DNA of 64,000 nt from positions 37,154-101,153 of IMG/VR virus record IMGVR_UViG_3300021400_002728. One strand, 5' to 3'. Every line of letters starts with the position of its first letter. The stretch's first letter is position 1. Shown piece after piece: positions 6,369 to 60,944 of this stretch. A program made the translations under genes and the position numbers. The DNA comes from a virus (taxonomy: Duplodnaviria > Heunggongvirae > Uroviricota > Caudoviricetes). The notes under the pieces are model-generated. The model was not told the origin of the DNA, did not search any database, and saw nothing but the letters and a program-made list of their open reading frames with translations.

Positions 6369-6404
6369 ATTATATCATGTTGTATATACTTTGTAAATAG
6401 TTTT
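6369..6404 (-). promoter_or_regulatory. Promoter P-c: AAAACTATTTACA -N17- TGaTATAAT upstream of GyrB-like gene
   Basis: Family member; -35 region overlaps stop codon of gmk-like gene. Confidence 0.65.
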
Positions 6405-7431: not shown

Positions 7432-9279
7432 TTACTCCTTAAATAGCTCTTCGATCTCTTTACCACTTAAAGTTTCAACTTCAAGCAATTTTTTAGCAAG
7501 CTTTTCTACTTTATCATAATTTTCTTTAAGTAACTTTTTACATTCATTATATCTGTCTTTTGACATATTACTAAGTCGTTTAGTAAGATCTTTACCATCG
7601 ACTAAGTGAGTTTTACTTAATACTGAAATATCAAGTAAACCAAAATCATCATCAAATCCAAGATTTTCAATATATTGAGTCATACAATCAGTAGCTTGTG
7701 TAATATCATTTGAAGCACCAGTAGTAATAGATTCAAATTTAATTTCTTCAGAAGCTCTACCTGCATAACAAATCATTATTCTATGTTCAAAATCTTGTTT
7801 GGTGAGAAATACTGTTTCTTTATCAGCATTAATAACTGCACCACCAACACCAGATACTGTAGACTGAATACTCGCTCTTGCAATTGGTTCATTAAGTAAA
7901 TAGCTCATAACTGCGTGTCCAGCTTCATGGTATGCAATAATTTCTTTATCTTTAAGAAATTTCTCTTTCTTAGATCTATTACCTTTAAACTGTTTCTTAT
8001 CAATTGCCTCTTCAATACATGCACGATCAATAGCATCTTTATCAGTCATAACTGCAATAATAGACGCCTCATTGCATATAGCTTCAATATCTGCGCCAGT
8101 AAATCCAGAAATCTGTTTACTAATTTCTTCAAGATCATCTTTTAACTTATCATCGATTGTATATCTCTTTAAGTGATGTTCGAATAATTCTAATCGTTCT
8201 TGCCAATTTCTTGGTGGCATTACAATTATCTGTCTATCAAATCTACCTGCACGAACTAATGCTTTATCTAATGCATCAGGTCTATTAGTAGCCGCAATTA
8301 TAAAAATTCCTTCTCTACCAGTAAAACCATCCATTTCTTGAAGTAAAGCATCTATAGTTTGTTCATGCTCTGAGGTGCCTTTACCATTATCTCTATCAGT
8401 ACCAACTGCGTCTATTTCATCAATAAACACAATACAAGGTGCATTCTGTTTTGCGAGTTTGAATAGACCACGAACATTCTTTGCACCTACACCAACAAAT
8501 CTATCAATAAATTTAGAAGCATTCTGATATAAGAATGGCACATCAGCTTCACCAGCAATAGCTTTTGCTAGAAGTGTTTTACCACATCCAGGTGGTCCAC
8601 TAAATAAAATTCCTTTTGGTAGTTGTGCTCCTATTTTATCACCTATCTTAGGATTCTTCATAAGTTTAGTAATAAATTTTAAGTCATCTATAATTTCATC
8701 GTGTCCAATGACATCTTCAAATTTTTTAGTGCTCGTTTGAATAATATCCTCAGGTTTAACATCAGTAAAAACAGTTGACTTTAACATAACTACTAATACT
8801 ATTATCCATATAATTGGAAACGCCACAGACATAAAGGTTTCCATAATTTTAATAACAGTGGTATCTTCATTAGTTACGTTTAGAATAACACCATATTCTA
8901 GCAAATTCATTCTAAAATTATCACCACCAGGATATAATACCTGACGTTTATCAGCATTGGTATAGCCAGTATACTCATCTCGTTCTTGAATTGACATTTT
9001 TCTAGTTTCATCATTATATAAAGTAAATGTCATCCATTTATTATTCTTATTATAATCTACTGTATCTATATCACCTGCTTCTAGATAGTCTAGAAATTCA
9101 TCATATGATACTTTCTGAATATTAGTTTGTTTAGAAGCATCAATTCTAGTATATATAAAAGAAATAGTGAGCATTAACATTGCTACAGCTAATATCCAAT
9201 TTTTATACTTATGTATAAATTCTTTAGCTTTTTTCAATATAATAGTCTCCCTTCTAACAAAATAAAAGAGAGCTAGCAT
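7432..9279 (-). CDS. ftsH: FtsH-like membrane AAA+ ATPase / zinc metalloprotease
   Basis: N-terminal TM helices; Walker A GPPGCGKT; Walker B/SRH region; zinc site HEAGHAV; C-terminal ITTGASNDITQAT characteristic of FtsH protease domain; possible TTG start with AGAAGGGAG SD. Confidence 0.9.
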   Translation of the reverse strand: MLALFYFVRRETIILKKAKEFIHKYKNWILAVAMLMLTISFIYTRIDASKQTNIQKVSYDEFLDYLEAGDIDTVDYNKNNKWMTFTLYNDETRKMSIQERDEYTGYTNADKRQVLYPGGDNFRMNLLEYGVILNVTNEDTTVIKIMETFMSVAFPIIWIIVLVVMLKSTVFTDVKPEDIIQTSTKKFEDVIGHDEIIDDLKFITKLMKNPKIGDKIGAQLPKGILFSGPPGCGKTLLAKAIAGEADVPFLYQNASKFIDRFVGVGAKNVRGLFKLAKQNAPCIVFIDEIDAVGTDRDNGKGTSEHEQTIDALLQEMDGFTGREGIFIIAATNRPDALDKALVRAGRFDRQIIVMPPRNWQERLELFEHHLKRYTIDDKLKDDLEEISKQISGFTGADIEAICNEASIIAVMTDKDAIDRACIEEAIDKKQFKGNRSKKEKFLKDKEIIAYHEAGHAVMSYLLNEPIARASIQSTVSGVGGAVINADKETVFLTKQDFEHRIMICYAGRASEEIKFESITTGASNDITQATDCMTQYIENLGFDDDFGLLDISVLSKTHLVDGKDLTKRLSNMSKDRYNECKKLLKENYDKVEKLAKKLLEVETLSGKEIEELFKE

Positions 9280-9309
9280 TCAAAGAATACTAGTTCTCTT
9301 CTTATATTA

Positions 9310-9322
9310 TTAAATAGCTCTT
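9310..9322 (-). promoter_or_regulatory. Conserved element 2 (minus-strand reading AAGAGCTATTTAAT) directly after the serpin stop codon
   Basis: One of 4 intergenic copies (9310, 14944, 27340, 60657), all within 0-6 nt after a stop codon; no sigma70 -10 at proper spacing. Confidence 0.3.
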
Positions 9323-9323
9323 A

Positions 9324-10712
9324 TCACAGACTATTAATTTTGCCAATGAATAGACATTCATGTGCCTCTGTATCATAGATCATAAATACAAATGGACGAT
9401 CAAGAATAATCTCATGTACTTCTGTATCTCTAACAGGTGCAGCACTCTTCTCAAGAGTAATAGCTGTTACTGCTGCAGCTTCTGTGCCTTCAGGATTAAC
9501 ATCTACATAAGTCATCTGAATAACATCTGATACAGAAAGTGGTGTATCACTAAGATATTCCAAATAATCAGTATTGCCAGATCTAAATGCAGGTGCTAAA
9601 CCATTGTTATAAAGTGCATTGAAAAGATGATTCTCATCAGAAATCTTAAACTGAGGAATACCAATATTTACTTCATATCCATGAACTGGATTAGAAAGCA
9701 TATCATCTATATCAAGATCATTTACTGCAAAATTAGCGTTTTCCTTAGGAAGAATACCAATAAATACGAGATTTGAGTCTTCATAAGGCTTCATAAAACC
9801 TTCACACCAATTACTTTCATAATAAGTAGTATAACCATAATCGTACATCATAGTAACAGTAGAAGTAGATCCATCTGCATTAGTAAATACTGCTTCTCTA
9901 CAATTATGATCATCGAATGGATTTGCCCAAGTACCAGAGAAATAAAGTGCATTAATAAGTAAACCATCATTCAATCTCAATACTTCAGGTGATATAATAG
10001 AAGGAATACATCCATCTGTTGCTCCATCACACCAAGAATTGATAATTTCTGCACTTGTTGCATCACTAAAATCAAGTGACTGTACTCTTCCATTGTAATA
10101 TGCACTAAGTACATCTACATATGCTGGTGCAGGAGTAACTCCAGTATTAAACCATGCAGAATTTGCTATTGACATACGACTATTAAGATCATCAAACAGA
10201 TAACGTGAAATAAGTGCATTATTTCTTGATCTAATTCTAAGAAAATCATTAGGATAATTACATCCATTAAGATAATTGATTAATGCGTTATATGATTCTG
10301 TATTATCTCCAGCACCTTCAAGCAAAAGAGAAAGAGCCATATTCAAACTTGTTTCACTAAGAATAGTATTCTCATTAACATTATCAGATTCATGTTCTAC
10401 ATAATCAAGAACTGTAGTAATATTATTCAGTGAATAGTCACTGTCAAAATCATACTCAGTATTAACAATGAAGTCATCAGAATCCTCAATTAGTCTAAAT
10501 CTCTGATCTGAATCATCGTGCTTGCTAATTTTGGTATCATTTTCTGTTGAGTCAATTTTGCTTGGATTGTCATCAGTTACATCTACAATACTTACATTAT
10601 TAAGTGGATGATCTGTAGGTATGTCTGGAGTAACTCGAGTATCACCACATCCAGTGAATACTGTTATAACCATTGCTGCACAGAGTGCAATTGACAAAAT
10701 ACGCTTTTTCAT
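9324..10712 (-). CDS. Serpin (serine protease inhibitor), secreted lipoprotein
   Basis: Signal peptide + lipobox (VFTGC); serpin motifs NALYFSGTWANPF, reactive-centre-loop hinge NPEGTEAAAVTA, C-terminal DRPFVFMIYD. Confidence 0.85.
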   Translation of the reverse strand: MKKRILSIALCAAMVITVFTGCGDTRVTPDIPTDHPLNNVSIVDVTDDNPSKIDSTENDTKISKHDDSDQRFRLIEDSDDFIVNTEYDFDSDYSLNNITTVLDYVEHESDNVNENTILSETSLNMALSLLLEGAGDNTESYNALINYLNGCNYPNDFLRIRSRNNALISRYLFDDLNSRMSIANSAWFNTGVTPAPAYVDVLSAYYNGRVQSLDFSDATSAEIINSWCDGATDGCIPSIISPEVLRLNDGLLINALYFSGTWANPFDDHNCREAVFTNADGSTSTVTMMYDYGYTTYYESNWCEGFMKPYEDSNLVFIGILPKENANFAVNDLDIDDMLSNPVHGYEVNIGIPQFKISDENHLFNALYNNGLAPAFRSGNTDYLEYLSDTPLSVSDVIQMTYVDVNPEGTEAAAVTAITLEKSAAPVRDTEVHEIILDRPFVFMIYDTEAHECLFIGKINSL

Positions 10713-11918: not shown

Positions 11919-12530
11919 TTATTTACAGTCGTCTTCGAATATGTTAAGAACCTGCCATTCGTCAAGTCCAGAAATATATTTACGAGATGCAACATAATCT
12001 GCTAGATGAATAAGTTTCTCAAAGTCAGTTCTAGGCTTAGAAAGTGCTTTAGCATTTCCATACTTATCAGTACACCATTTACCCATATGAGTATAAATAG
12101 CATCACAGATCATTTCAGTAGTAAGATCATCAATCTTTTCTTCAACAAGATGATTTCTTACAAAATCAGCAGCAAATCTAGGGTGTTCAAATTCAGTATG
12201 ATTAGAATAAGATCCGTCTTCAGCTACAGGTCCATGTTTAATACCATCATGGAAAAGTGCTGCAACTCTTGCAATATCTCTATTTGCAGAATTATCTCTA
12301 ACAAACATCTCGCAAGTAACAAGATCCATTGCACAAGTACAAACCATAATAGAATGTCTTACAAGACCACCATCTCCAAGATCACAGGCAGGATGATATT
12401 TTCCAGAAGAACTTGCAGCTACATGCCAAAAATAGTCAGGTAGATCTTTAGCCATTTTCTTAGCTACTTTCTTCAACTTATCATTTTCGATCTTATCAAT
12501 CTCAGCCATAAACTGCTTTTTCATGTCCAT
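11919..12530 (-). CDS. HD-domain phosphohydrolase
   Basis: HD motif ...VAALFHDGIKHG..., His upstream (KYHPACDLGDGGLVRHS). Confidence 0.7.
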   Translation of the reverse strand: MDMKKQFMAEIDKIENDKLKKVAKKMAKDLPDYFWHVAASSSGKYHPACDLGDGGLVRHSIMVCTCAMDLVTCEMFVRDNSANRDIARVAALFHDGIKHGPVAEDGSYSNHTEFEHPRFAADFVRNHLVEEKIDDLTTEMICDAIYTHMGKWCTDKYGNAKALSKPRTDFEKLIHLADYVASRKYISGLDEWQVLNIFEDDCK

Positions 12531-12561: not shown

Positions 12562-13104
12562 TTATGCGATCTTCGCAAATCCAGATCTCAGCTCACTTAC
12601 AAGATCAGTAACATACATATCAGTATACTTGCAAGTCTGTCCGTCATATTCATCAACATAGAGCTTAAACTTGTAGTTATCTCTAACGTTTCTGTTAAAC
12701 TCTTCTACGATATGACATTTCTTCTCTATATGTCTATTTGGACTACAAGAAATAATTCCAAGTCCAAAAGGATCTCTTGAAACAACTTCATATACCGGAA
12801 TGATGAATCTTACATTCTCAATTCCTTCAGACATAATTGACTGGCAGAGTTCATCACTAGTGATCCATTCACCGCTTTCAAGCTTATCCTTAACATCCTG
12901 GATAGAAATTTTCTTGAAATTATCGAGATAGATTTTATGCTGATTCCAGGTGAAGAACTTACCGACTTCATCTTCTCGAATAGTACGATCAAAGTCTCTA
13001 TAATGACCATTATTATTAGTCTGTACAGTTACCTTAGTACTGAACTCGTTGTTAGATCTCCAAACACTAATAACTTCATTGCCACAATCATATAAATAAG
13101 TCAT
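12562..13104 (-). CDS. Hypothetical protein (start moved to MTYLYD; GGAGG-8nt-ATG)
   Basis: Track ORF start overlaps its own SD; 5' UTR contains palindrome TAGTTACTGATAACTA. Confidence 0.5.
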   Translation of the reverse strand: MTYLYDCGNEVISVWRSNNEFSTKVTVQTNNNGHYRDFDRTIREDEVGKFFTWNQHKIYLDNFKKISIQDVKDKLESGEWITSDELCQSIMSEGIENVRFIIPVYEVVSRDPFGLGIISCSPNRHIEKKCHIVEEFNRNVRDNYKFKLYVDEYDGQTCKYTDMYVTDLVSELRSGFAKIA

Positions 13105-13147
13105 GTTATCTACCTCCAATAGATTAGTTATCAGTAACTATAGAGAT

Positions 13148-13183
13148 ATTATAACATGACTCTTATTGTTTGTAAATAGTATT
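13148..13183 (-). promoter_or_regulatory. Promoter P-e: AAAATACTATTTACA -N17- TGtTATAAT (sigmaA-type)
   Basis: -35 TTTACA, exactly 17-bp spacer, TG-extended -10; member of 18-copy family. Confidence 0.65.
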
Positions 13184-13215
13184 TTTACAGATTTTCATTA
13201 TATTCACACTTGGTA

Positions 13216-13434
13216 TTATAAATTAGATTCTTCAACTTTCATAGTTTCCTGATCAACCCAAGCATTTGGATTAAGCCATAGCATAGTTCCAGTATCAAGA
13301 TCTACAGCATTTGACTTTTCTCCATAACATTCACAAAATGGAGGTAGTTTCATTACATGTTCATCCTTATATGTAAATTTAGTACCCTGTTTAAGTTCAT
13401 CTATTGTAATATATCTTTCATCTGGACTAAACAT
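13216..13434 (-). CDS. Hypothetical small protein (start moved to MFSPDERY; GGAGG-8nt-ATG)
   Basis: Track start MEVIDM overlaps the SD itself. Confidence 0.45.
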   Translation of the reverse strand: MFSPDERYITIDELKQGTKFTYKDEHVMKLPPFCECYGEKSNAVDLDTGTMLWLNPNAWVDQETMKVEESNL

Positions 13435-13459
13435 ATCTATTACCTCCAAATATATTTAT

Positions 13460-13495
13460 ATTATATCAAAGATAACTATTTTTGTAAATAGTTAA
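13460..13495 (-). promoter_or_regulatory. Promoter P-f: ACTATTTACA -N17- TATAAT
   Basis: -35 overlaps stop codon of GGDEF gene; 17-bp spacer. Confidence 0.6.
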
Positions 13496-14547
13496 ATGAT
13501 TTTTACACCATTTCGTCCATGCTGTTTTACATAGTATAGCTGTTCATCTGCTATTTTAATAATATTATTGTAATCAGTAACTTCATCATACATACATCCA
13601 CCAATAGAAACTGTTACTTGATATGTAATAAGTTCAGCTTGTATAGCATCTTTTATTCTCATCGCAGTATCATATAAAATTTCTTTATTTACATTATTAA
13701 GTACTACTACAAATTCCTCTCCACCAAATCGAATAAGATAATCCTCTGATCTAATTGTATTATTTACAGTATAAGCTAATTTTTGTAGTATAACATCACC
13801 TACATCGTGTCCATAAGTATCATTTATCTTTTTAAAAAAATCTATATCTAATAATAAAATACCGGCATTATCAATAGTAAAAATATTTGTACCATTATGA
13901 CAAATAGTCTTGAATATATTTCTATTATATGCACCAGTTAATGGATCATGTAATAATACATGATTTAATTTAATATTTGAAATAAATTTATCTTCAAATA
14001 CTTTTTCTAGATACTGAATTAAAATTTCTGATCCAATAATAAGAAATATATGTAAGGCAATAATAGTTAAGAAATCATCATAATGAATAAATATATTAGC
14101 AATTATAATATCAACTATCATAAGTGAATGAAATATTGCAGAATAACGTTTTGGAGACGCTAATCCTAAGAATATAAAAATACATTCTATAACCATTAAG
14201 CCTTCATTAGCATGCATACGATTTTCTAAATGAAAAACTGCCCAAGACGTACAAAAAATAATTATGTGCGTCATAACATATGATGCTGAAATACAAAGCT
14301 TATAGTTATTTGATTTTCGCATAATAATTATGTATATAGCTAAGAATATAAAAATAGAAGCTCTAGCAAGTAGAGTTTCTAAAGCTATTCTACCATATAA
14401 CATACAATCAGTAAACCAATAAAAGAACGATGTAATACTAGCAGTTAGAATAATATAAAATACCATCTTCTCATAGTATTCATATTTAGATTGATAAAAC
14501 TCATCTTTACGTTCTTTTATGATACTATTAGTTATGTTTGGATTCAT
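13492..14547 (-). CDS. Membrane-anchored diguanylate cyclase (multi-TM N-terminal domain + GGDEF)
   Basis: Six-seven hydrophobic helices then DPLTGAYNRNIF...GHDVGDVILQ...RFGGEEFVVVL (GGEEF active site). Confidence 0.85.
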   Translation of the reverse strand: MNPNITNSIIKERKDEFYQSKYEYYEKMVFYIILTASITSFFYWFTDCMLYGRIALETLLARASIFIFLAIYIIIMRKSNNYKLCISASYVMTHIIIFCTSWAVFHLENRMHANEGLMVIECIFIFLGLASPKRYSAIFHSLMIVDIIIANIFIHYDDFLTIIALHIFLIIGSEILIQYLEKVFEDKFISNIKLNHVLLHDPLTGAYNRNIFKTICHNGTNIFTIDNAGILLLDIDFFKKINDTYGHDVGDVILQKLAYTVNNTIRSEDYLIRFGGEEFVVVLNNVNKEILYDTAMRIKDAIQAELITYQVTVSIGGCMYDEVTDYNNIIKIADEQLYYVKQHGRNGVKII

Positions 14548-14568
14548 TATTTATCACCTATAAAAAAT

Positions 14569-14598
14569 AACGGATAGATATGTTGCAATCTACCCGTT
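14569..14598 (-). terminator. Hairpin (AACGGATAGAT/ATCTACCCGTT, one G-U) followed by UUUUUUAU on minus-strand RNA; intrinsic terminator after 14623..14874
   Basis: Seen in sequence. Confidence 0.55.
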
Positions 14599-14622
14599 AC
14601 TTTCTTAATACTTTGTTAATTT

Positions 14623-14874
14623 TTACCATAAGTTCTTACATACATTTACAATCCACTGTCCGATTGCTAAGAAACTTGGCATGGTAATTCCGAAAATACC
14701 AAGAAGTAATCCAATAAGCAAATATCCAATTACTATTCTAACGCAATCAATAACTTTCTTTTTGAGCGCAACCTTCATAATAAGACAAATAATTACAAGG
14801 ATTACCATATTAGTTGGCATTGATATTGCAAATGCTAAAAGATTGTTCAATAATGTACTTACTATACCTTCCAT
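14623..14874 (-). CDS. Small two-TM membrane protein
   Basis: ORF track; two hydrophobic helices; preceded ~70 nt upstream by conserved element 2. Confidence 0.5.
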   Translation of the reverse strand: MEGIVSTLLNNLLAFAISMPTNMVILVIICLIMKVALKKKVIDCVRIVIGYLLIGLLLGIFGITMPSFLAIGQWIVNVCKNLW

Positions 14875-14943
14875 CTTTATACTCTCCTTTATATTGTATA
14901 TTTATCAAAACTTAGTATTTTTCACATTCATACTATGTTATAA

Positions 14944-14956
14944 TTAAATAGCTCTT
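14944..14956 (-). promoter_or_regulatory. Conserved element 2 (AAGAGCTATTTAAT) overlapping the stop codon of the GT-C-like gene
   Basis: See element-2 family. Confidence 0.3.
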
Positions 14957-16359
14957 TAGTTATGTTGGTAAACTGTATACATATTATCATCAAAGATTAG
15001 TGTCCAGTCATCTGTATTTCTATTCATAGTTCTATTAACATAATGATTTTTCTTAGCTACTACATACTCATAGTCATCAACTAAGGCTAAAATCTCATCA
15101 TCTTCAACTAATGAATACCCACCATCTGATTCAGCCCAATATCCTTGTGATAACGCGAAATAGTCTTCTAGAATATGTGGTACACCACTAATCTCTTCAG
15201 AAAAGGCTTCACATCGACTATCTATTTTGATCTTTGTACATCCATTATACTCTAACCAACCACCTAAATCCATGGCTACATTATATATAGGAGCATCCTT
15301 GTCTTCAATAGAATTAGCAACCTTACCATAGTCATATTTAATATCTGTATGATGTACAAATAAAAAACATACTGCTATACATATTAACGAGATACATCCA
15401 TACATATAAGTATTATTGAGTTTATGAAATTCATCTACACAGCAGATTAAAAATACTACTGGAATAAACATAATACTAATATGTCTAAAATTTATTAAGG
15501 CTAATATTGCAATAATGAACACATAGTAATTAACAAAATAATTAGACTTATGTTTATAGATATAGTAAATAGTAAAACCAATTATTAAGGTTAACTTAAC
15601 ACCAGCGTAATCTTTTATTGATATTGGCAAAAGCTCATTTATACTAATTACATTAAATGCATTTGACATAAATGTTCGTACAATATATAATGATCCATCT
15701 ATACCATAAGGTGTTAATAAACTACATGTCATAAATAATGGTGTAAAACATATTAATGTCCAATCTATAAATGGTTTTTCTTTTTTATAAAAATATGGAA
15801 CCATTATTAGACCATGATATAAAAATACTGCCTGATGCATATTAGCTGATAAAATCAATATGGGAAAAATAGGAAGTAAATATTTAATAGACTTCTTTTC
15901 CTTATATAATTCTAGGAATATTAAATGAGCTAATAAACAAATAACAGTTATAATCTGTGGCCTAATATTGATCATATAATCACTACATATCAATATAGCT
16001 GCAATAGATCCAATAAATGCCTTCTTTTTATCATGTGTCTTTATCATGATAAACGCGACAGATACAAAATATAACACTATATTCTGAACTAATACAAATA
16101 GAATATGTCCAGTTGTTCCAAATCTATCTATAATGGCTAAACAAACTGCATATAGCCACTGTTGAACCGTTATTGGAAAGTTATTTAAGTGACTAGCAGT
16201 ATGAAAATTTCCATTAAGTATATCTCTACCACTCATAATCTCAAAAAACATATCATTATCTTGAGATTTACGTAATAAAATAATGTATAAAATGAGCATA
16301 AATAGACACATCAATACAATAGGAAAGTATTTATTTATTTTGTTACATACATTTTTCAT
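14956..16359 (-). CDS. Polytopic membrane protein (about 11-12 TM helices + C-terminal soluble domain), GT-C fold glycosyltransferase-like (GtrC/YfhO/PMT-like)
   Basis: Hydrophobicity pattern only; adjacency to GT2 GtrB-like gene; no specific motif verified. Confidence 0.45.
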   Translation of the reverse strand: MKNVCNKINKYFPIVLMCLFMLILYIILLRKSQDNDMFFEIMSGRDILNGNFHTASHLNNFPITVQQWLYAVCLAIIDRFGTTGHILFVLVQNIVLYFVSVAFIMIKTHDKKKAFIGSIAAILICSDYMINIRPQIITVICLLAHLIFLELYKEKKSIKYLLPIFPILILSANMHQAVFLYHGLIMVPYFYKKEKPFIDWTLICFTPLFMTCSLLTPYGIDGSLYIVRTFMSNAFNVISINELLPISIKDYAGVKLTLIIGFTIYYIYKHKSNYFVNYYVFIIAILALINFRHISIMFIPVVFLICCVDEFHKLNNTYMYGCISLICIAVCFLFVHHTDIKYDYGKVANSIEDKDAPIYNVAMDLGGWLEYNGCTKIKIDSRCEAFSEEISGVPHILEDYFALSQGYWAESDGGYSLVEDDEILALVDDYEYVVAKKNHYVNRTMNRNTDDWTLIFDDNMYTVYQHN

Positions 16360-16363
16360 TTAC

Positions 16364-17509
16364 TCAATCCTTTTTAACTTTAATTTCTAGAATGCCTAAG
16401 AAAAAGCTACTAAACATAAGTTGTATTCCACATACCAGTAATACAAGCATTGGAATAGTTAATCTTAGCATTTTTGAAGCATCTAAGTTACCAAAATTTG
16501 TATTTGACCATATTACCAATGCAACAATAGATCCAATTAACCCAACTACAAATAGAATTGCTCCTACTAAAATTCCTCTATTCATAGTTAGTTTAACTAG
16601 AAAATTATCAATCCTACACATTGGTATAAATTTAGATATTGCTGCATATCGTTTAGTTATTACATAGAATAGTATTAACTGAAAACCAATGATTGTTGAT
16701 ACTGCTCCATATACCAATGTATTGACGTCAAATTTAATATTACGAACAATAATAGGATCTAAAATAATCTTAGTACTTAGTATAATTCCAGCTATATGAA
16801 ATAACAATCCTGGATATAAGAATAACCAATTTGGGGCATGCATAAGCAAGAACGTCAAATGTCTCCAACCATCATACCAACTTCTTAGGTGTGGTGGACG
16901 GTCACGACCATCTTTTTTGAGAGTAGTAGGAACTTCACATATTTTAAGATTATGCAAAGTTGCTTGAACTACCATCTCACTGGCATATTCCATACCAGTA
17001 GTATGAAGATTAAGATCTAATATACTCTGTCTATTATATCCACGAAGACCACAATGAAAGTCTTTAATAGGACTTTTATATAGAATTCGACCAATAGTAG
17101 ATAATACTGGATTTCCTAAGTATCTGTGAAGTAGTGGCATGGCACCTTTTTCTATACCACCTTTGAATCGATTGCCCATAACCAATTCATATCCTTCACG
17201 AAGTTTTTCTACAAAAGGCATTAAGTTATTGAAATCATAAGAGTCATCAGAATCTCCCATAATGACATATTTACCTAATGCAGCATGACTGCCGCCAATT
17301 AAGGCAGCACCATAACCTTTTTCTTCAATGTTTACTACTCTTGCTCCTGCATTTCTAGCAATGTCTTGAGAACCATCTATACTGCCATTATCTGCAATAA
17401 GAACTTCACCATCAATTTGATTTTCTTTGAGAAATGTCTGTGCTTTACTGATACAAGTTTCTAATGTTCGTGACTCATTTAAGCAAGGCATTAGAATAGT
17501 TAATTCCAT
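16364..17509 (-). CDS. Family-2 glycosyltransferase with C-terminal TM helices (GtrB/CsbB/ArnC-like polyprenyl-phosphate sugar transferase)
   Basis: ILMPCLNES...LIADNGSIDGS...MGDSDDSYD (DxD) GT-A fold motifs; C-terminal hydrophobic helices. Confidence 0.8.
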   Translation of the reverse strand: MELTILMPCLNESRTLETCISKAQTFLKENQIDGEVLIADNGSIDGSQDIARNAGARVVNIEEKGYGAALIGGSHAALGKYVIMGDSDDSYDFNNLMPFVEKLREGYELVMGNRFKGGIEKGAMPLLHRYLGNPVLSTIGRILYKSPIKDFHCGLRGYNRQSILDLNLHTTGMEYASEMVVQATLHNLKICEVPTTLKKDGRDRPPHLRSWYDGWRHLTFLLMHAPNWLFLYPGLLFHIAGIILSTKIILDPIIVRNIKFDVNTLVYGAVSTIIGFQLILFYVITKRYAAISKFIPMCRIDNFLVKLTMNRGILVGAILFVVGLIGSIVALVIWSNTNFGNLDASKMLRLTIPMLVLLVCGIQLMFSSFFLGILEIKVKKD

Positions 17510-18127
17510 TTAATCAATTCCCTTCTTTTTTAATAGAGCTACAAAATGAAGATTTGAATCAAAGAAGATATGACATAAAAATGTGTATAAGTCTAACTTA
17601 TCTGCATAGTAAACAATTTCAAGATTATTATCCTCGAACATTTTATTCCATTGTTCTTCTGTAAGATAATTGTAAGGTAAGCTCACATTGTATTGTCTGT
17701 TACCTACATAATCCATCATTTTTAACTTTATTAATGACCACCATCCATGAAGAATGTGATCTTTTATTATAATGTATTCATCAGTTACTCTAACAACCTC
17801 AGAAAATAGCTTTTCTGGATCATCTGCATGATGTAATACATCTATCATCATAGTTGTGTTTACTTCATTTGTATGATATGGAATTGTACGACCGTCATAT
17901 TCAAGTACTGGAATAAATGTCTTATCTCTAACTAAAACATCTATTCCAGTAATTTGAATGTTATTCTTTTTAATTAGAATACTATCAATTTTGCCATCAC
18001 CTGCGCCAATATCAACTATATTGTTAATATTAAACATATCTATAATAGTAGTTATCCACATACTAAGCTGAGACATTCGACGATCATATATAAACCAATC
18101 ATGAAATTTGCTTAATAATGTTTTCAA
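17510..18127 (-). CDS. Class I SAM-dependent methyltransferase
   Basis: Motif I VDIGAGDGK; Rossmann-like alternation. Confidence 0.55.
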   Translation of the reverse strand: MKTLLSKFHDWFIYDRRMSQLSMWITTIIDMFNINNIVDIGAGDGKIDSILIKKNNIQITGIDVLVRDKTFIPVLEYDGRTIPYHTNEVNTTMMIDVLHHADDPEKLFSEVVRVTDEYIIIKDHILHGWWSLIKLKMMDYVGNRQYNVSLPYNYLTEEQWNKMFEDNNLEIVYYADKLDLYTFLCHIFFDSNLHFVALLKKKGID

Positions 18128-24403: not shown

Positions 24404-24494
24404 TCGCTCTGTCCTTTCATATTTGATTTTGGAATGTATATTAAAATACGGATAGTGGTGTCTCTTATAATTATATCTTACGATTTAATTTGAA

Positions 24495-25085: not shown

Positions 25086-25121
25086 ATTATATACTGTTAC
25101 TATAAATTTGTAAATAGTTTT
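25086..25121 (-). promoter_or_regulatory. Promoter P-g: AAAACTATTTACA -N17- TATAAT
   Basis: Family member; only recognisable promoter upstream of the RNAP operon. Confidence 0.6.
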
Positions 25122-27254: not shown

Positions 27255-27339
27255 AGTACATCTCCTTATAACTTACAAATAAGAATGTAATTGATCTAAA
27301 CAATCAACTACATCCTTTTGCTTCTATAAACTTATAGAA

Positions 27340-27352
27340 TTAAATAGCTCTT
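27340..27352 (-). promoter_or_regulatory. Conserved element 2 (AAGAGCTATTTAAT) 6 nt after stop of 27359..28132
   Basis: See element-2 family. Confidence 0.3.
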
Positions 27353-31449: not shown

Positions 31450-31485
31450 ATTATAACATGAATATAGAAGTTTGTAAATAGATAA
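31450..31485 (-). promoter_or_regulatory. Promoter P-h: ATTTATCTATTTACA -N17- TGtTATAAT
   Basis: Family member upstream of Pnkp. Confidence 0.6.
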
Positions 31486-34253: not shown

Positions 34254-35174
34254 TTATGCCTCCTTAAAATGAAGTTTGAGAATGTTTACCACATCTTCTG
34301 ATAATTTATACCATTTATGGTCTTTACCATATCGTTGTGCTATTTCTTTTAATCTATCATCTAATGTAGTGTCTTCTCCAGTTGGACTTACAGTCATATC
34401 GGCATAATTCAGAATAAGCCACTCATTAGTAACGGTAGGAGGAATAGTTCCATGATTTTCAATAAATTCACTATACTTCCAACCATTTAGAATTTCAGCT
34501 CCGACTTTCTCATGATGTTCAGGATCAAATTCATATCCCATATCATGATTCCATCCTAAAGCAAACATTGATCTTGCAAACTGCTCATCATAATCAAGAT
34601 CTTTTGCAGTTTTATATGCTTTACGTGCAACACCTATAATATGATGAAGTCGATCTTCAGTAATCATACTTCTAATGATACCTTTTTCTTCACAGTATTT
34701 ATAAAATGACAGTGCTAACAGATGACGATATTTTAATGGATTCTTACGAATCATGGTACCAGAAATGGGAATATCATTTCTATCTGCTACATAAAACTTA
34801 TGATTAGGATAGAGCTGTTTAATCTTTTCTTCATAAGAAGGTTCACCCATATACCATTTGCATTCAGAATTAGGATCAATACCTGCCTGATCAAATAGTT
34901 CATTACACCATACTCTCCAATTTTCAAGAGTAAATGTACCATCAAGGAAAAGTTTGCTATCATCAATAAGAACAATCTTAACTCGGTCAAACCCTCCAAA
35001 TTCCTGTTTAACTAGCTCATATCTAGTTCTAAAAGGAATGAAGTCTTTTCCTCGATCATTATCAAAGCCACAAACTCCAATGACTACTTCATCATTTTCA
35101 GCCAAGGCTTTGTATATCAATGAAGTATGACCTGTATGCATAGGTATATAACAACCAAAAGTTATTCCTACCAT
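34254..35174 (-). CDS. Nicotinate/nicotinamide mononucleotide adenylyltransferase (NadM/NadR-type) fused to a C-terminal HD-like domain
   Basis: (H/T)xGH motif CYIPMHTGHTSLI; ISGTMIR (SxTxxR) motif; C-terminal HHIIGVA...HDMGY. Confidence 0.7.
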   Translation of the reverse strand: MVGITFGCYIPMHTGHTSLIYKALAENDEVVIGVCGFDNDRGKDFIPFRTRYELVKQEFGGFDRVKIVLIDDSKLFLDGTFTLENWRVWCNELFDQAGIDPNSECKWYMGEPSYEEKIKQLYPNHKFYVADRNDIPISGTMIRKNPLKYRHLLALSFYKYCEEKGIIRSMITEDRLHHIIGVARKAYKTAKDLDYDEQFARSMFALGWNHDMGYEFDPEHHEKVGAEILNGWKYSEFIENHGTIPPTVTNEWLILNYADMTVSPTGEDTTLDDRLKEIAQRYGKDHKWYKLSEDVVNILKLHFKEA

Positions 35175-35722: not shown

Positions 35723-35758
35723 ATTATAACATGCTACAATACACTTGTAAATAGTTTT
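35723..35758 (-). promoter_or_regulatory. Promoter P-j: AAAAACTATTTACA -N17- TATAAT
   Basis: Family member heading the helicase / NAD operon. Confidence 0.6.
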
Positions 35759-40438: not shown

Positions 40439-40474
40439 ATTATAACATGTGTTTTGATCTATGTAAATAGTTTA
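40439..40474 (-). promoter_or_regulatory. Promoter P-k: AAACTATTTACA -N17- TGtTATAAT
   Basis: Family member. Confidence 0.6.
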
Positions 40475-42059: not shown

Positions 42060-42095
42060 ATTATAAACTAAATTTTTAATAATGTAAATAGTTTT
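42060..42095 (-). promoter_or_regulatory. Promoter P-l: AAAAACTATTTACA -N17- TATAAT
   Basis: Family member. Confidence 0.6.
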
Positions 42096-43117: not shown

Positions 43118-44335
43118 TTACTTCTCATTAGTAAGTCTCCAGTTGATACATCTCTTAAGATACTCAACATATTCAGGATTCTTGCACATTCCCTTGCCTT
43201 CAACATCAGAGATTTTAGCAACATCCATACCGTTACAAGCAGTAGTCTTCATTACGATATTGAGAGGTTCTACATCTGTATCGTTAGCGATGTAAGTACC
43301 AATACCGAATGCAACCTTTGCCTTTCCATTAAAGTGTCTTACAATCTTATCTGCCTTTTCGAAGTTAAGGCTATCAGAGAAGAGAAGTGTCTTGGTCTTA
43401 GGATCAATACCAAGTTTCTGATAGTGAGCGATCATCTTCTCACCCCATTCGATAGGATCACCAGAGTCATGACGAACACCACTAAAGAGAGTAGAGAATG
43501 TAAGATCAAAATCTCTAAGGAAACAATCAGTAGTGATTGCATCAGTAAGAGCAGTTCCGTTAAGTACTCCGTATTCCTTAACCCATGCGCTAAGCGCGTA
43601 GTAGTTAGAGTATGCCGGATTATGCTTATGATCTCCCTGACCTACACACATGATCCACTCGTGGGCCATGGTACCGACAGGCTTTACACCGAACTTCTTA
43701 GCAAGATATACATTAGAAGTTCCAACGAAGTGGCTTGCACTGTGCATTGTATCATTGAGGTGACTGAACTTCTGAATTGCAAGTTCCTGTGCCTCAGCAG
43801 AAAGTCTACGTCTAAGACCGAATTCAGAGAATACTCCAAGGTACCACTTACCGTGTTTTACATTCTCGAATTTCTCATCAAGACGTCTCTTAAAACTCTC
43901 AATGAGCTGATCATAATCGTAATTCATTCTGAAGTAAACTTCATTTACGATTGCGAGAGTAGGGATCTCATACATAGAAGTATTCAACCAAGTTCCCTTA
44001 GTTTCGATTGCAAGTCCACAATCAGCATCAGTAGTGATCTCGAAATCTTCAAATCTAGGCTTCCAGATTCTAAGGAAATCGATGTAGCTGCCCTTGAACC
44101 AAGGAATATTATCAAGATATTCAAGCTCATCTTCTTCAAATCGAAGATTACAATAAGCTTTGATCTGGTCCTTGATCTCCTGAACCATTTCCGGAGTGAA
44201 CTTTACGTCTTTATTTCTACATTTGAATGTCCAAGTAGTCTTATAGGATGGGAACTGATGGTAGATGGCCTGGCCCATAGAAAACTTGTAAAGATCAGTT
44301 TCGAGTAGACTTACGATAATTGGATTGAGTTTCAT
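43118..44335 (-). CDS. pncB: Nicotinate phosphoribosyltransferase
   Basis: N-terminus MKLNPIIVSLLETDLYKFSMGQAIYHQFP matches NAPRTase family start (TDxYKxTM); 405 aa. Confidence 0.8.
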   Translation of the reverse strand: MKLNPIIVSLLETDLYKFSMGQAIYHQFPSYKTTWTFKCRNKDVKFTPEMVQEIKDQIKAYCNLRFEEDELEYLDNIPWFKGSYIDFLRIWKPRFEDFEITTDADCGLAIETKGTWLNTSMYEIPTLAIVNEVYFRMNYDYDQLIESFKRRLDEKFENVKHGKWYLGVFSEFGLRRRLSAEAQELAIQKFSHLNDTMHSASHFVGTSNVYLAKKFGVKPVGTMAHEWIMCVGQGDHKHNPAYSNYYALSAWVKEYGVLNGTALTDAITTDCFLRDFDLTFSTLFSGVRHDSGDPIEWGEKMIAHYQKLGIDPKTKTLLFSDSLNFEKADKIVRHFNGKAKVAFGIGTYIANDTDVEPLNIVMKTTACNGMDVAKISDVEGKGMCKNPEYVEYLKRCINWRLTNEK

Positions 44336-44518: not shown

Positions 44519-44554
44519 ATTATAACAAGAAATGTTTGCTTTGTAAATAGTTTT
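44519..44554 (-). promoter_or_regulatory. Promoter P-m: AAAAACTATTTACA -N17- TGtTATAAT
   Basis: Family member. Confidence 0.6.
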
Positions 44555-45209: not shown

Positions 45210-45245
45210 ATTATAATAAGAAATAATTAAGATGTAAATAGTTTT
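45210..45245 (-). promoter_or_regulatory. Promoter P-n: AAAAACTATTTACA -N17- TATAAT
   Basis: Family member. Confidence 0.6.
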
Positions 45246-46731: not shown

Positions 46732-46767
46732 ATTATAATATAGAATAATTACTGTGTAAATAGTTTT
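46732..46767 (-). promoter_or_regulatory. Promoter P-o: AAAAAACTATTTACA -N17- TATAAT
   Basis: Family member. Confidence 0.6.
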
Positions 46768-48661: not shown

Positions 48662-48697
48662 ATTATAACACGATCTTAGATAAATGTAAACAGTTTT
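48662..48697 (-). promoter_or_regulatory. Promoter P-p (variant): AAAACTGTTTACA -N17- TGtTATAAT
   Basis: Family member with C to G change in upstream element. Confidence 0.55.
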
Positions 48698-57549: not shown

Positions 57550-57592
57550 TTTTCTTTTACTCCTTTAATTTTATATCTTACAATTTATATTG

Positions 57593-58403: not shown

Positions 58404-58900
58404 TACATACTCCTTACATTTTCCTCTTTCGAGGGCTTATTATATCTTACATTTTGAAATTCAGAAAACTGAATAACATTCTGATCATTATGAGACCTAA
58501 ATGAATTAGAAATTTCCATCATTCTTTTAAAGTTCTCGTCTCTACGCTGTTGTTTTTTAGCAAGTTCTTTCATTTCTCTTTTGTACTCAGCATACGTAGC
58601 AGCATTCTTAAGTCCATACCAATTAAAATCCCAGATACACCAAATATGCTCATGTGCTTTTACTAGATACTTAACTGTAAACATTTCACTAAGCATTGAT
58701 GATACTAATAAACCTAAGCAAACTATACAGCCGATAAATGAATTATTTCCATAAGGTTCTGGTGCATCAACTCCAGAAGCACAGAAAACAAATCCAATAA
58801 GGCCTATTGCCAAGCTTACAATCTTAAAAAATGAAAGTACAACAACTGTGTTACTTCTAACTTTTGTTAAAAATTCCTTTGTAAAAACCTGTTCCAACAT
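58403..58900 (-). CDS. Hypothetical two-TM membrane protein
   Basis: ORF track. Confidence 0.5.
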   Translation of the reverse strand: MLEQVFTKEFLTKVRSNTVVVLSFFKIVSLAIGLIGFVFCASGVDAPEPYGNNSFIGCIVCLGLLVSSMLSEMFTVKYLVKAHEHIWCIWDFNWYGLKNAATYAEYKREMKELAKKQQRRDENFKRMMEISNSFRSHNDQNVIQFSEFQNVRYNKPSKEENVRSM

Positions 58901-58930: not shown

Positions 58931-58966
58931 ATTATATCAAGGAGGTATTAAATTGTAAATAGTTTT
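58931..58966 (-). promoter_or_regulatory. Promoter P-r: AAAACTATTTACA -N17- TGaTATAAT; spacer contains AATACCTCCTT complementary to downstream SD AAGGAGGTATT
   Basis: Family member. Confidence 0.6.
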
Positions 58967-60616: not shown

Positions 60617-60656
60617 TTTCGTACCTCTTTTCTTAAAGATTTGAACATCTGTATAA

Positions 60657-60669
60657 TTAAATAGCTCTT
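60657..60669 (-). promoter_or_regulatory. Conserved element 2 (AAGAGCTATTTAAT) 2 nt after stop of 60672..60944, about 45 nt upstream of ATG at 60616
   Basis: See element-2 family. Confidence 0.3.
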
Positions 60670-60671
60670 CA

Positions 60672-60944
60672 TTAACGATCTTCAGGATGTGAATCAACCA
60701 TAATGGTTCCGTCTGAATTATATCTTACAGTAATACCACAACCTTCATATCCATCATATAGCAAATAATGAACACCAGTCTCAGGATCTACATAATCTGA
60801 AATTTCATCATTTGCATAATATGTGAGCTTACTATAATAATCTGCGTCATTCCAAGTCTTTTCTTCAGATACACCACATCCAGTTAAAACACCTGCTACA
60901 ACTGCGATACTAGCCGCTGCAATAAGAACTTTAGATTTATTCAT
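60672..60944 (-). CDS. Small secreted lipoprotein
   Basis: MNKSKVLIAAASIAVVAGVLTGC lipobox. Confidence 0.55.
   Translation of the reverse strand: MNKSKVLIAAASIAVVAGVLTGCGVSEEKTWNDADYYSKLTYYANDEISDYVDPETGVHYLLYDGYEGCGITVRYNSDGTIMVDSHPEDR

Follow-up and report, generated by a model that had tools for sequence, protein, structure and literature searches.

A predicted membrane-anchored diguanylate cyclase carried by an uncultured lineage of jumbo phages

Introduction

Cyclic di-GMP (c-di-GMP) is the main switch between the motile and sessile states of bacteria; its control extends in Clostridia to pili, adhesins, toxins and sporulation. The only interference of phages with this messenger known to us is indirect, via YIP peptides that activate a cyclase of the host. 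In PB1-like Pseudomonas phages, these peptides act on the host cyclase YfiN, and as a result c-di-GMP and biofilm formation increase and motility decreases (PMC8085984). In the literature searched, no phage-encoded cyclase has been characterised, YIP, an activator of a host enzyme, being the only related case.

Genes for GGDEF proteins have been annotated in Bacillus phage SP-15, Bacillus phage G (gp350), Bordetella phage CN1, Escherichia phage vB_EcoS-683R6 and an uncultured member of the Caudovirales (‘AdrA’). No functional study of any of these genes was found in the literature search, and GGDEF is not discussed in a comparative review of jumbo phages. The BFVD viral structure library includes about eight GGDEF proteins, all of them known by annotation only. 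A preliminary description of the DNA studied here had stated that virus-encoded c-di-GMP synthases are rarely described, and these searches bear it out.

Two kinds of cellular enzyme resemble in their build the protein examined in this work. ImcA from Pseudomonas aeruginosa (PDB 8wcn) includes six transmembrane (TM) helices followed by a GGDEF domain, and both its activity and its regulation by a partner protein depend on the membrane domain (PMC10904736). The MASE8-GGDEF cyclases of Lachnospiraceae and other Clostridia, such as MBQ4068421.1 and MBE5926835.1, are of about 350-370 aa and consist of a membrane module and a GGDEF domain. Some of these exceed the Pfam threshold for MASE8, and none has been characterised. 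Here, a gene of this kind was analysed in a 64-kb stretch of viral DNA, which is referred to in its whole length as the window.

Results

The catalytic domain

The cyclase gene is located on the minus strand at positions 13492..14547, and is an ATG-to-stop open reading frame (ORF) of 351 aa plus the stop codon. Residues 196-351 (13495..13962, minus strand) were assigned to a GGDEF catalytic domain by Pfam, NCBIfam and alignments to solved cyclases. The Pfam profile PF00990 matched residues 199-346 over profile positions 2-160 of 161 (E = 1.3e-37; 129.5 bits, cut-off 23.8), and NCBIfam TIGR00254 gave E = 3e-43 (147.4 bits, cut-off 37.4). As judged by these sequence scores, the assignment is far beyond chance. 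The motifs DPLTGAYNRN, GHDVGD and RFGGEEF occupy residues 201-210, 246-251 and 273-279, respectively.

The last of these, R273-F-G-G-E-E-F279 (13711..13731, minus strand), is the A-site motif and is invariant in 67 of 67 family members. Further residues invariant in all 67 are D201, N208, R209, D234, D236, K239, N242, D251 and K341, and R345 is conserved in at least 90% of them. The catalytic residues line up with the matching motifs of the solved cyclase DosC. Residues for the A-site and for metal, guanine and phosphate binding presumably correspond to D327, N335, D344, K332, R366, K442 and R446 of PleD; the roles of these residues are established by published work on PleD and WspR. Five residues upstream of the GG pair lies the I-site R266-S-E-D269 (RxxD; 13741..13752, minus strand), which is aligned to RSSD of DosC and is followed by YLIRF and then GGEEF. 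The RxxD motif is the site of allosteric inhibition by the product. It is fixed in every member of the phage clade, whereas it varies among the cellular homologues. The GGDEF domain is thus intact, as had been proposed, in its motifs, in its profile matches, in catalytic residues that are invariant across the family and in an I-site that is fixed in the phage clade.

Foldseek matches of the GGDEF domain included ImcA, SiaD, PleD, DgcZ, WspR and DosC. The ratio dN/dS was 0.06-0.17 for the whole cyclase, 0.06-0.26 for the GGDEF domain and 0.04-0.10 for the membrane module, which shows strong purifying selection on each of the two domains. From the sequence and the structure model, the product is predicted to be a catalytically competent, membrane-anchored diguanylate cyclase.

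GGDEF domains are frequently degenerate and serve as receptors, and the protein could instead be a c-di-GMP receptor or scaffold, an enzyme with another product (3'3'-cGAMP or c-di-AMP, as in the Hypr type), or an ATPase like GdpP. The I-site is intact and would permit c-di-GMP binding, and homologues gave weak secondary Pfam matches to GGDEF_GdpP and GGDEF_2. We nevertheless regard a role of this kind as quite unlikely, given that the A-site, metal-binding and guanine-binding residues are all invariant. In the Hypr rule (GacA-type, cGAMP-producing enzymes), Ser replaces the guanine-specifying Asp at the position of PleD D344. Here, that position is the invariant Asp251, as in canonical cyclases, and by sequence this is a mark of the canonical GTP-specific type. 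Moreover, of the homologues examined only P0015 exceeded the GGDEF_GdpP cut-off, with 32.8 bits against 30, and the GGDEF_GdpP match always overlaps a far stronger match to GGDEF.

The membrane module

Residues 1-195 (13963..14547, minus strand) form an N-terminal membrane module, which is modelled by AlphaFold2 with six TM helices at residues 14-51, 56-78, 82-105, 113-130, 133-154 and 159-199 (mean pLDDT of the whole protein, 91.1). In the model, the sixth helix runs on as a long signalling helix into the GGDEF domain. A sensor-like membrane domain of six to seven helices had been described previously; the model agrees with six but not with seven.

The N-terminal region of the cyclase itself had no Pfam match, even at E <= 1. 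However, MASE8 (PF20968) was matched by 17 of 67 full-length homologues, with a best E-value of 1.8e-8 and, in homologue P0042, a score of 30 bits against a cut-off of 26.2. The module is therefore taken to be a divergent MASE8-type sensor. Polar residues D47, C48, E57, R62, H94 and H140 are conserved in it. In view of these residues, and of a constraint on the module that equals or exceeds that on the catalytic domain, the enzyme is probably gated rather than constitutive.

The best full-length match of the model in the PDB was ImcA, a 6TM-GGDEF homodimer, with a TM-score of 0.68 over 362 columns. The likeness is in the overall fold, and a shared TM-domain family is not established by it. ImcA shares only about 19-20% identity with the phage protein and belongs to a Gram-negative host, and there is no counterpart here of IsmP, the iron-sensing CHASE4-PAS protein that regulates it.

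The annotated phage GGDEF proteins listed above are likewise carried by phage genomes, including those of jumbo phages of Firmicutes. However, they belong to unrelated phage lineages, most are of 146-254 aa, and they are 29-38% identical to the cyclase in the GGDEF domain only, with no match extending into the membrane module.

Cellular relatives and the phage carrier

The nearest cellular relatives of the cyclase are chromosomal genes of Firmicutes with the same architecture and about 35-43% identity. The chromosomes in question carry PolC, NusA, IF2 and SASP genes, and two are named Lachnospiraceae. The cellular proteins align with the phage cyclase from end to end and share with it the invariant polar residues of the membrane module as well as the catalytic residues; they differ in chromosomal setting, in sequence identity and in the variable RxxD motif. 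A scan of a genome collection with the family alignment, intended to name host genera, was dominated by generic GGDEF domains of every phylum and was not informative on this point. The phage copies group in a single clade in a rough NJ tree.

The cyclase gene is flanked on both sides by phage-type genes, and the genes around it include those for a split multisubunit RNA polymerase (RNAP), topoisomerase II, UvsX, Dda, DnaB/primase and a Pnkp-Rnl RNA ligase. This gene order recurs in at least four independent metagenome assemblies, in contigs of 331-401 kb, and one of the syntenic relatives, of 331,944 bp, is filed as viral in IMG/VR. The syntenic contigs read in this range include full-length orthologues of the cyclase with 62-82% identity, the family as a whole ranging from 55 to 99%, and contigs that carry the cyclase reach 441 kb. 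Separately branching members of the cyclase family are found in the large viral contigs L001 and L003/L004.

None of the window ORFs scanned was recognised as a capsid, terminase or tail gene; hence, the designation as a phage rests on the replication and transcription hallmarks and on the IMG/VR classification. A megablast search with 10 kb around the cyclase gave no match to GenBank phages, and the RNAP subunit had only marginal protein matches to cultured phages. The lineage is thus one with no cultured relative.

These null results would also fit a bacterial gene placed in the window by chimeric assembly, or one carried by a giant plasmid or other element, and in databases many GGDEF genes filed under ‘phage’ in fact belong to bacterial contigs. 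Such an origin is highly unlikely here. The same order with phage-type genes on both sides is found in the independent assemblies, the hallmarks (split multisubunit RNAP, UvsX, Dda, topoisomerase II and Pnkp-Rnl) are those of jumbo phages, and one relative is an IMG/VR entry. In addition, all genes of the window are on one strand and share 13 copies of one promoter, and the phage copies of the cyclase are set apart from the cellular ones by their low identity and their own clade. The claim that the gene is phage-encoded is accordingly upheld. The cyclase is an enzyme of a known kind with an unusual carrier.

In slightly more distant relatives, the flanking genes are kept and the cyclase is absent. 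L019 includes genes for a family 2 glycosyltransferase (GT2) and a GT-C-fold glycosyltransferase without the cyclase, and L016, L017 and L018 include the GT-C gene alone, also without the cyclase. The cyclase is therefore a clade-specific accessory insertion and not a core gene. Its site is a variable hotspot that directly follows a conserved terminator-like hairpin.

Expression of the cyclase gene

A ribosome-binding site, AGGTGA (14554..14559, minus strand), was read from the sequence 7 nt upstream of the ATG, and the start codon is aligned in relatives. A terminator-like hairpin with a T-run (14562..14604, minus strand) lies between the cyclase gene and the gene for an 83-aa membrane protein (14623..14874, minus strand). 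The hairpin has a dG of -21.5 kcal/mol (z = -5.15), and none of 200 shuffled sequences folds as well. It is conserved in relatives, with compensatory changes in 4 of 11 pairs, and lies 15 nt upstream of the start codon of the cyclase, with no promoter after it. This hairpin was not mentioned in the preliminary description.

Perfect TTTACA-N17-TATAAT sites occur 13 times on the coding strand, 0.1 being expected by chance. None is present between 25114 and the cyclase gene, consistent with the earlier view that the cyclase has no recognisable promoter of its own. A sigma-A-type promoter, TTTACA-N17-(TG)TATAAT (13460..13488, minus strand), starts 4 nt past the stop codon of the cyclase and drives the next gene (13216-13449). 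The gene for the 83-aa protein is preceded, as noted before, by the promoter-like ‘element 2’ (GAGCTATTTAAT...ATAGTAT; 14930..14954, minus strand). The 12-mer GAGCTATTTAAT occurs on the coding strand four times without mismatch, including the copy at 14943-14954 ahead of the 83-aa gene, and eight times when one mismatch is allowed, against 1.1 expected. Element 2 is kept in relatives as GACTATTTAAT and is also present in L016.

Transcription of the cyclase gene would most likely proceed by read-through of the conserved hairpin, from element 2 or from further upstream, and this would keep the level of the cyclase modest. L016, which lacks the cyclase, has a comparable hairpin after the same 83-aa gene, followed by an FtsH-like gene with no promoter, and read-through therefore appears normal in the lineage. 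Because of the strong hairpin upstream and the lack of a promoter after it, the cyclase could be poorly expressed.

Neighbouring genes

Upstream of the 83-aa gene lies the gene for a 467-aa polytopic GT-C-fold glycosyltransferase (14956..16359, minus strand), a member of a small family in which Pfam assignments are almost lacking. It is followed upstream by a GT2 polyprenyl-phosphate sugar synthase gene (16364..17509, minus strand). The GT2 protein is GtrB/AglJ/PpgS-like and has a C-terminal TM domain. It matched Pfam Glycos_transf_2 (E = 1.3e-21), the PHROG ‘GtrB-like O-antigen conversion’ and the NCBIfam families AglJ, Dol-P hexose transferase and PpgS, and GT2_TM_C was matched in orthologues. 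At the head of the glycosylation block is the gene for a SAM-dependent methyltransferase (17510..18127, minus strand; Pfam Methyltransf_11 and Methyltransf_23), which is missing in relative L011.

The GT2 and GT-C genes upstream of the cyclase make up a surface glycosylation module. As in the Gtr-type phage systems and the CsbB/GtcA/YfhO systems of Gram-positive bacteria, a GT2 synthase gene adjoins that for a GT-C-fold transferase on the phage. However, no flippase of the GtrA/GtcA type was recognised here, and the carrier is apparently a lytic jumbo phage, not a temperate one.

This arrangement raises the question of whether the cyclase is a dedicated local activator of the phage GT2 and GT-C proteins, comparable to BcsA-PilZ, Pel (PelD), Listeria Pss (PssE) and Escherichia coli DgcJ-NfrB. 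The cyclase is near the GT2 and GT-C genes in every relative that bears it, and cellular homologues have genes for envelope modification, MBOAT and Dlt-like in kind, in their vicinity. For phage N4 and NfrB, GT2 glycan synthesis that depends on c-di-GMP is also known to influence phage adsorption (PMC8669472). Dedicated activation is unlikely, however, as neither the GT2, GT-C and 83-aa proteins nor the methyltransferase showed a PilZ, MshEN or degenerate GGDEF receptor domain, and the conserved hairpin separates the cyclase from the glycosylation block. Furthermore, the GT2 belongs to the polyprenyl-phosphate sugar synthase type, for which we know of no regulation by c-di-GMP. As L019 retains both glycosyltransferase genes and L016, L017 and L018 the GT-C gene without the cyclase, the latter is dispensable for the phage and is not tied to glycosylation, the GT-C protein being a neighbour and not a dedicated partner. 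Coupling of the cyclase to glycosylation was rejected as the main reading on the same grounds.

Two small genes were considered as partners of the cyclase and rejected. The 83-aa protein, considered also as a GtrA-like flippase, is encoded by an ancestral core gene of the phage group and is kept with 69% identity in L016 and L019, both without the cyclase. It had no significant Pfam, PHROG or PADLOC match and, in particular, no match to GtrA (PF04138). A 77-aa gene downstream of the cyclase is likewise present in L016.

A Pfam scan of 51 other ORFs of the window matched 28 families, and the 25 of these that were listed included no PilZ, MshEN, EAL or HD-GYP domain. The downstream HD protein (11919-12530) matched the plain Pfam HD family only, with no HD-GYP signature seen by eye.

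PADLOC gave no match for the cyclase or for eight neighbouring proteins. This weighs against a role in counter-defence or nucleotide warfare, in which a flood of c-di-GMP would jam cyclic-nucleotide immunity or decoy-sensing, or would drain GTP. The literature on Panoptes and CBASS provides precedents for conflict between phage and host via cyclic nucleotides, and the window includes other genes resembling counter-measures, for NAD salvage and for the Pnkp-RNA ligase. To our knowledge, no defence system of Firmicutes is triggered or blocked by c-di-GMP, and a membrane sensor with I-site feedback fits regulated signalling and not bulk nucleotide production. Such a role is therefore considered very unlikely.

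Discussion

The core of the preliminary description, a GGDEF cyclase behind a sensor-like membrane domain, is well founded in the conserved residues, a confident structure model, purifying selection and synteny. The best overall explanation, which on the sequence and the model we consider probable, is that a captured and signal-gated phage cyclase raises c-di-GMP and so reprogrammes the infected host. An uncultured lineage of jumbo phages would have taken the cyclase from a Firmicute host, probably one of the Lachnospiraceae or related Clostridia, and retained it.

By analogy with the family and with ImcA, two chains would dimerise via the membrane module, and each GGDEF domain would bind one GTP-Mg, the pair then condensing these to c-di-GMP. 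Binding of the product at the conserved RxxD I-site would cap the output. The input for gating may be a membrane or envelope signal or a partner protein. The c-di-GMP thus raised would act on the effectors of the host itself. In Clostridia, these are mainly flagellar, pilus, adhesin and sporulation genes under riboswitch control; the regulon of the host of this phage is assumed here from Clostridia in general. The infected cell would then tend to lose motility and to change its surface, which the products of the adjacent phage GT2 and GT-C genes would remodel as well, such that superinfection may be limited or the infected cell kept productive. Superinfection exclusion, a switch in motility or biofilm formation, and an action on c-di-GMP-sensing defence, the purposes proposed in the preliminary description, are speculative.

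Several observations count against this explanation. Rfam scans of the 64-kb window, at gathering thresholds and at E <= 1, gave neither a c-di-GMP riboswitch nor any other credible RNA family, and no effector was found among the Pfam families listed; these searches thus provided no downstream target, about 80% of the genome, roughly 270-380 kb, being outside the window. The gene is without a promoter and lies behind a strong terminator-like hairpin. Finally, the cyclase is absent from the relatives L019 and L016.

A broader reading, put forward only tentatively as it is less likely to be true than false, is that the membrane sensor retained by the phage, which is conserved with the host family and more constrained than the catalytic domain, reads an envelope or environmental cue and turns it into a second-messenger output that decides the behaviour of the infected cell. 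Examples would be the blocking of motility, sporulation or division, and the timing of surface remodelling. If this holds, the separately branching family members in L001 and L003/L004 would make sensor-driven signalling a strategy that recurs among the large phages that infect gut Firmicutes.

The explanation favoured here, a captured cyclase that raises c-di-GMP in the infected host, has a parallel in YIP, which is also a function of lytic phages that raises c-di-GMP in the host. The difference is that YIP is a small peptide acting on the YfiN of the host, whereas in the present case the phage brings a cyclase of its own. The region around the gene, with GT2, GT-C, serpin and FtsH-like protease genes, is flagged as an envelope-aimed host-takeover region in abundant uncultured giant phages. 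As the cyclase is kept under purifying selection across the phage clade, it provides a concrete protein with which to test whether, and why, phages raise c-di-GMP. Second-messenger signalling by a virus would have a direct example in a phage that carries a cyclase coupled to a sensor.

The cyclase gene and its catalytic domain

The diguanylate cyclase ORF (window positions 13492-14547, minus strand) encodes 351 aa from ATG to stop, with an AGGTGA ribosome-binding site 7 nt 5' of the ATG and a start codon that is aligned across relatives. Residues 199-346 matched nearly the whole GGDEF profile in Pfam (PF00990, E = 1.3e-37), and the protein matched TIGR00254 in NCBIfam (E = 3e-43). The motifs on which the preliminary description had based an intact GGDEF domain are all present (DPLTGAYNRN at 201-210, GHDVGD at 246-251 and RFGGEEF at 273-279), and with scores so far above chance that assignment was confirmed.

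Conservation was assessed in alignments of 19, then 67, full-length homologues. D201, L203, T204, N208, R209, D234, D236, F238, K239, N242, D243, H247, G250, D251, R273, G-G-E-E-F at 275-279, K341 and G344 were invariant, and R345 and N346 were kept in at least 90% of the homologues. A HMMER alignment placed the cyclase residues on the matching motifs of the solved cyclase DosC (DIDFFKKINDTYGHDVGD / DVDKFKEINDTWGHNTGD; RSEDYLIRFGGEEF / RSSDYVFRYGGDEF). From work on PleD and WspR, the roles are those of Mg-binding Asp, guanine-binding Asn and Asp, and phosphate-binding Lys and Arg. Asp251 is the canonical GTP-specifying residue, for which the cGAMP-making Hypr GGDEFs have Ser instead. An RxxD inhibitory site (R266-S-E-D269) lies exactly five residues ahead of GG, and is present in every member of the phage clade but variable among cellular homologues.

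Pairwise dN/dS for four phage copies was 0.06-0.17 overall, 0.04-0.10 for the membrane module and 0.06-0.26 for the GGDEF domain, figures that are approximate because dS is near saturation. Given this low dN/dS and the conservation of catalytic and I-site residues, the alternative that the domain is a degenerate receptor is unlikely. The data support the prediction of an intact, I-site-regulated, sensor-coupled diguanylate cyclase.

The membrane module

An AlphaFold2 model built on the 67-sequence alignment (mean pLDDT 91.1) places transmembrane (TM) helices at residues 14-51, 56-78, 82-105, 113-130, 133-154 and 159-199, the sixth extending, as a signalling helix, to a GGDEF domain of standard fold. 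Of the six to seven helices proposed earlier for a sensor-like domain, six were therefore retained and a seventh was not. The N-terminal region itself had no Pfam match. MASE8 (PF20968) was matched by 17 of the 67 homologues (best E = 1.8e-8; one above the gathering score), and the region appears to be a divergent MASE8-type module. Phage and cellular members share its conserved polar residues. Among the 67 homologues, D47 never varies and C48, R62 and H94 are each found in at least 90%; in the alignment of 19, H140 never varies and E57 reaches at least 90%. A HANEG loop is present throughout the phage clade. The top full-length PDB match was Pseudomonas aeruginosa ImcA (cryo-EM structure 8wcn, TM-score 0.68 over 362 columns), which shares six TM helices and a GGDEF domain with the phage cyclase. 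ImcA is a 6TM-GGDEF homodimer, and its activity and control by a partner protein depend on the membrane domain (PMC10904736).

The phage carrier

Every gene called in the window (GC ~33%) is on the minus strand. PHROG and Pfam matches include both topoisomerase II subunits, two split RNA-polymerase (RNAP) beta/beta'-like subunits, a full-length Pnkp-RNA ligase (703 bits), Dda and DnaB helicases, primase, UvsX recombinase and NAD-salvage enzymes. No capsid, terminase or tail genes were recognised among the window ORFs scanned. Full-length cyclase orthologues (55-99% identity) were found on contigs as long as 441 kb, and the gene order is identical on three independent contigs (331, 378 and 401 kb) and a 332-kb IMG/VR viral contig. 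It runs from RNAP beta and beta' through three more genes, a methyltransferase, a GT2 glycosyltransferase, a polytopic protein and an 80-aa protein to the GGDEF gene, followed by small genes, HD, RNase H, serpin, FtsH-like protease and topoisomerase II. The cyclase is thus phage-encoded, as had been proposed, on the evidence of phage-type flanking genes and a gene order recurring on 331-401 kb contigs. GenBank phages gave no DNA match, and at the protein level the RNAP subunit matched cultured phages only marginally. The carrier is a deep, uncultured jumbo-phage lineage.

Other cargo was also found. A 462-aa serpin (9324-10712, minus strand, Pfam E = 9.6e-66) and a full-length FtsH-like AAA+/M41 protease (7432-9279, minus strand, TIGR01241 E = 9e-139) are both kept in related giant contigs, and the pairing of a protease inhibitor with a membrane protease is uncommon in phages. 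A batch scan, in which matches are known by family and not per ORF, gave an NAD salvage/synthesis set of NAPRTase, NAD synthase, isochorismatase/nicotinamidase and an NMN adenylyltransferase-like protein (~34254-35174, 43118-44335 and other ORFs in 25000-56000), with two SPFH/Band-7 proteins, a BspA-type leucine-rich-repeat protein, a YkuD L,D-transpeptidase, DUF932, a YspA SLOG protein and a dual-specificity phosphatase in the same ORF group. In L019, a relative without the cyclase, the topoisomerase II (GyrB-like) gene (12629-15413) is split by an intein that carries an HNH endonuclease (Pfam Intein_splicing and HNH_3), whereas the window's copy is uninterrupted.

Origin and spread of the cyclase

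The next most similar homologues, at 35-43% identity, align over their full length and have the same architecture; chromosomal genes of Firmicutes are among them. One, named as Lachnospiraceae bacterium, lies between PolC and NusA/IF2 and adjoins CheX/CheC; a second is next to genes for a SASP spore protein, an MBOAT protein and another GGDEF protein; a third adjoins Dlt-like genes. The host of the cyclase-bearing phages is probably a member of the Lachnospiraceae or other Clostridia. At two loci carrying cellular MASE8-GGDEF members (L020 8001-14117 and L021 1597-10655), the neighbours are envelope-modifying genes (MBOAT, Dlt-like AMP-binding and carrier-protein genes), with a second paralogous GGDEF gene in L020, which hints that the family may sense or control cell-envelope state.

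The phage copies group as one clade in a rough NJ tree, which fits a single capture and subsequent vertical inheritance. Members of the family from other large viral contigs branch apart from this clade, one on a 143-kb contig (L001, 9974-11062) and two paralogues on one 268-kb IMG/VR contig (L003 9971-10906 and L004 9995-11056). The 143-kb contig also carries an SbcC-like protein, a PARP-like (PARP-WGR) protein and NrdD (1017 aa), the last matched by Pfam in two separate stretches.

The cyclase has diverged faster than core genes: between relatives its identity is 62-82%, against 80-95% for RNAP and 86-97% for the topoisomerase II large subunit. Relatives that are slightly more distant lack it. 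These are L019, in which the methyltransferase, GT2 and a GT-C-fold glycosyltransferase are followed directly by HD and FtsH, and L016, in which GT-C and an 81-aa protein precede FtsH. The GT-C-to-FtsH stretch is therefore a variable accessory hotspot, and the cyclase is a clade-specific insertion in it.

Neighbouring genes

The 381-aa GT2 protein carries a TM domain at its C terminus. It matches AglJ, dolichyl-phosphate hexose transferase, PpgS and the PHROG 'GtrB-like O-antigen conversion' family, and is predicted to be a polyprenyl-phosphate sugar synthase. The 467-aa polytopic GT-C protein had no Pfam match and only 74 homologues, many on 270-395 kb contigs. Together they would form a lipid-carrier-dependent surface glycosylation module, though no GtrA-type flippase was recognised. 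Cyclase and glycosylation genes both point at the cell envelope. However, domain searches of the module's proteins found no PilZ, MshEN or degenerate GGDEF receptor, and relatives keep the glycosylation genes without the cyclase, so a dedicated system in which the cyclase activates the synthase was rejected as the main reading.

Ahead of the cyclase lies a two-helix membrane protein of 83 aa (14623-14874, minus strand; L016 8490-8735; L019 4922-5161), which is 69% identical in distant relatives, compared with 42-45% for the GT-C beside it. It has no family assignment, and its place relative to the glycosylation genes shifts between relatives. A 203-aa HD-domain protein 3' of the cyclase (11919-12530, minus strand) is conserved in all relatives, including those lacking the cyclase. 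Its sole Pfam match is the plain HD family, and inspection by eye showed no HD-GYP signature, which makes a role as c-di-GMP phosphodiesterase improbable.

Promoters and expression

Thirteen perfect TTTACA-N17-TATAAT sites (element 1) were found on the coding strand, against 0.1 expected, at 6369-6397, 13148-13176, 13460-13488, 25086-25114, 31450-31478, 35723-35751, 40439-40467, 42060-42088, 44519-44547, 45210-45238, 46732-46760, 48662-48690 and 58931-58959 (minus strand). They usually have AAACTA ahead and often a TG-extended -10; they are promoters of the sigma-A type and look dependent on the sigma-A of the host. The phage also encodes its own RNA polymerase. Several sites lie directly 3' of a hairpin and T-run, forming terminator-promoter units. 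One starts 4 nt past the cyclase stop, and the nearest upstream is at 25114, with none between it and the gene, in agreement with the earlier view that the cyclase has no recognisable promoter of its own and follows a small gene preceded by element 2. The latter element, GAGCTATTTAAT, has exact minus-strand copies at 9309-9320, 14943-14954, 27339-27350 and 60656-60667, each just 5' of a gene on the coding strand. Its recurrence is significant, and the copy ahead of the 83-aa gene (14943-14954) is conserved in relatives and in L016. A further upstream element, GTAAGATATAA, recurs at 24471-24481, 57571-57581, 58440-58450 and 60718-60728, ahead of the RNAP beta and UvsX genes, in a number that is not significant. 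Both may represent promoter classes of the phage polymerase or of a phage sigma factor.

A hairpin with a T-run separates the 83-aa gene from the cyclase (14562-14604, minus strand; dG -21.5 kcal/mol, z = -5.15). It is conserved, with compensatory changes in 4 of 11 pairs across five sequences only. The 83-aa gene, element 2 and hairpin also occur together in relatives without the cyclase and probably constitute an ancestral unit. In L016 the FtsH-like gene is 3' of the equivalent hairpin with no promoter between, hence read-through seems usual in the lineage. We infer that transcripts reach the cyclase by reading through the hairpin, probably at a modest level.

Targets and precedents

No c-di-GMP riboswitch was found with Rfam, even at E ≤ 1, in the window, which covers roughly a fifth of the phage genome. 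PADLOC gave no match for the cyclase or eight neighbouring proteins, and PilZ, EAL, HD-GYP and MshEN were absent from the 25 listed of 28 Pfam families matched by 51 other window ORFs. Effectors of the host are the most likely targets of the cyclase product.

A few phages have annotated GGDEF genes (Bacillus phages SP-15 and G, Bordetella phage CN1, an Escherichia coli siphovirus and some uncultured viruses), and these proteins resemble the cyclase in the GGDEF domain only (29-38% identity). BFVD holds only ~8 GGDEF proteins, and many GenBank 'phage' GGDEF matches are actually bacterial contigs. The literature search found no published characterisation of a phage-encoded cyclase, and GGDEF is not discussed in a comparative review of jumbo phages (PMC7824862), so the preliminary description was right that virus-encoded c-di-GMP synthases are rarely described. 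The nearest functional precedent is the YIP peptide of PB1-like phages, which activates the host cyclase YfiN, raising c-di-GMP and biofilm and lowering motility; superinfection exclusion and metabolic arrest are hypotheses of the YIP authors themselves (PMC8085984). For phage N4, a glycan whose synthesis depends on c-di-GMP is known as the receptor (PMC8669472).

The evidence is annotation-level, the gene class has already been seen in phage genomes, and the biological purpose of the cyclase is one that we infer. The finding is a known kind of enzyme in a rare carrier and not a new kind of system, noteworthy to specialists and testable through heterologous expression.
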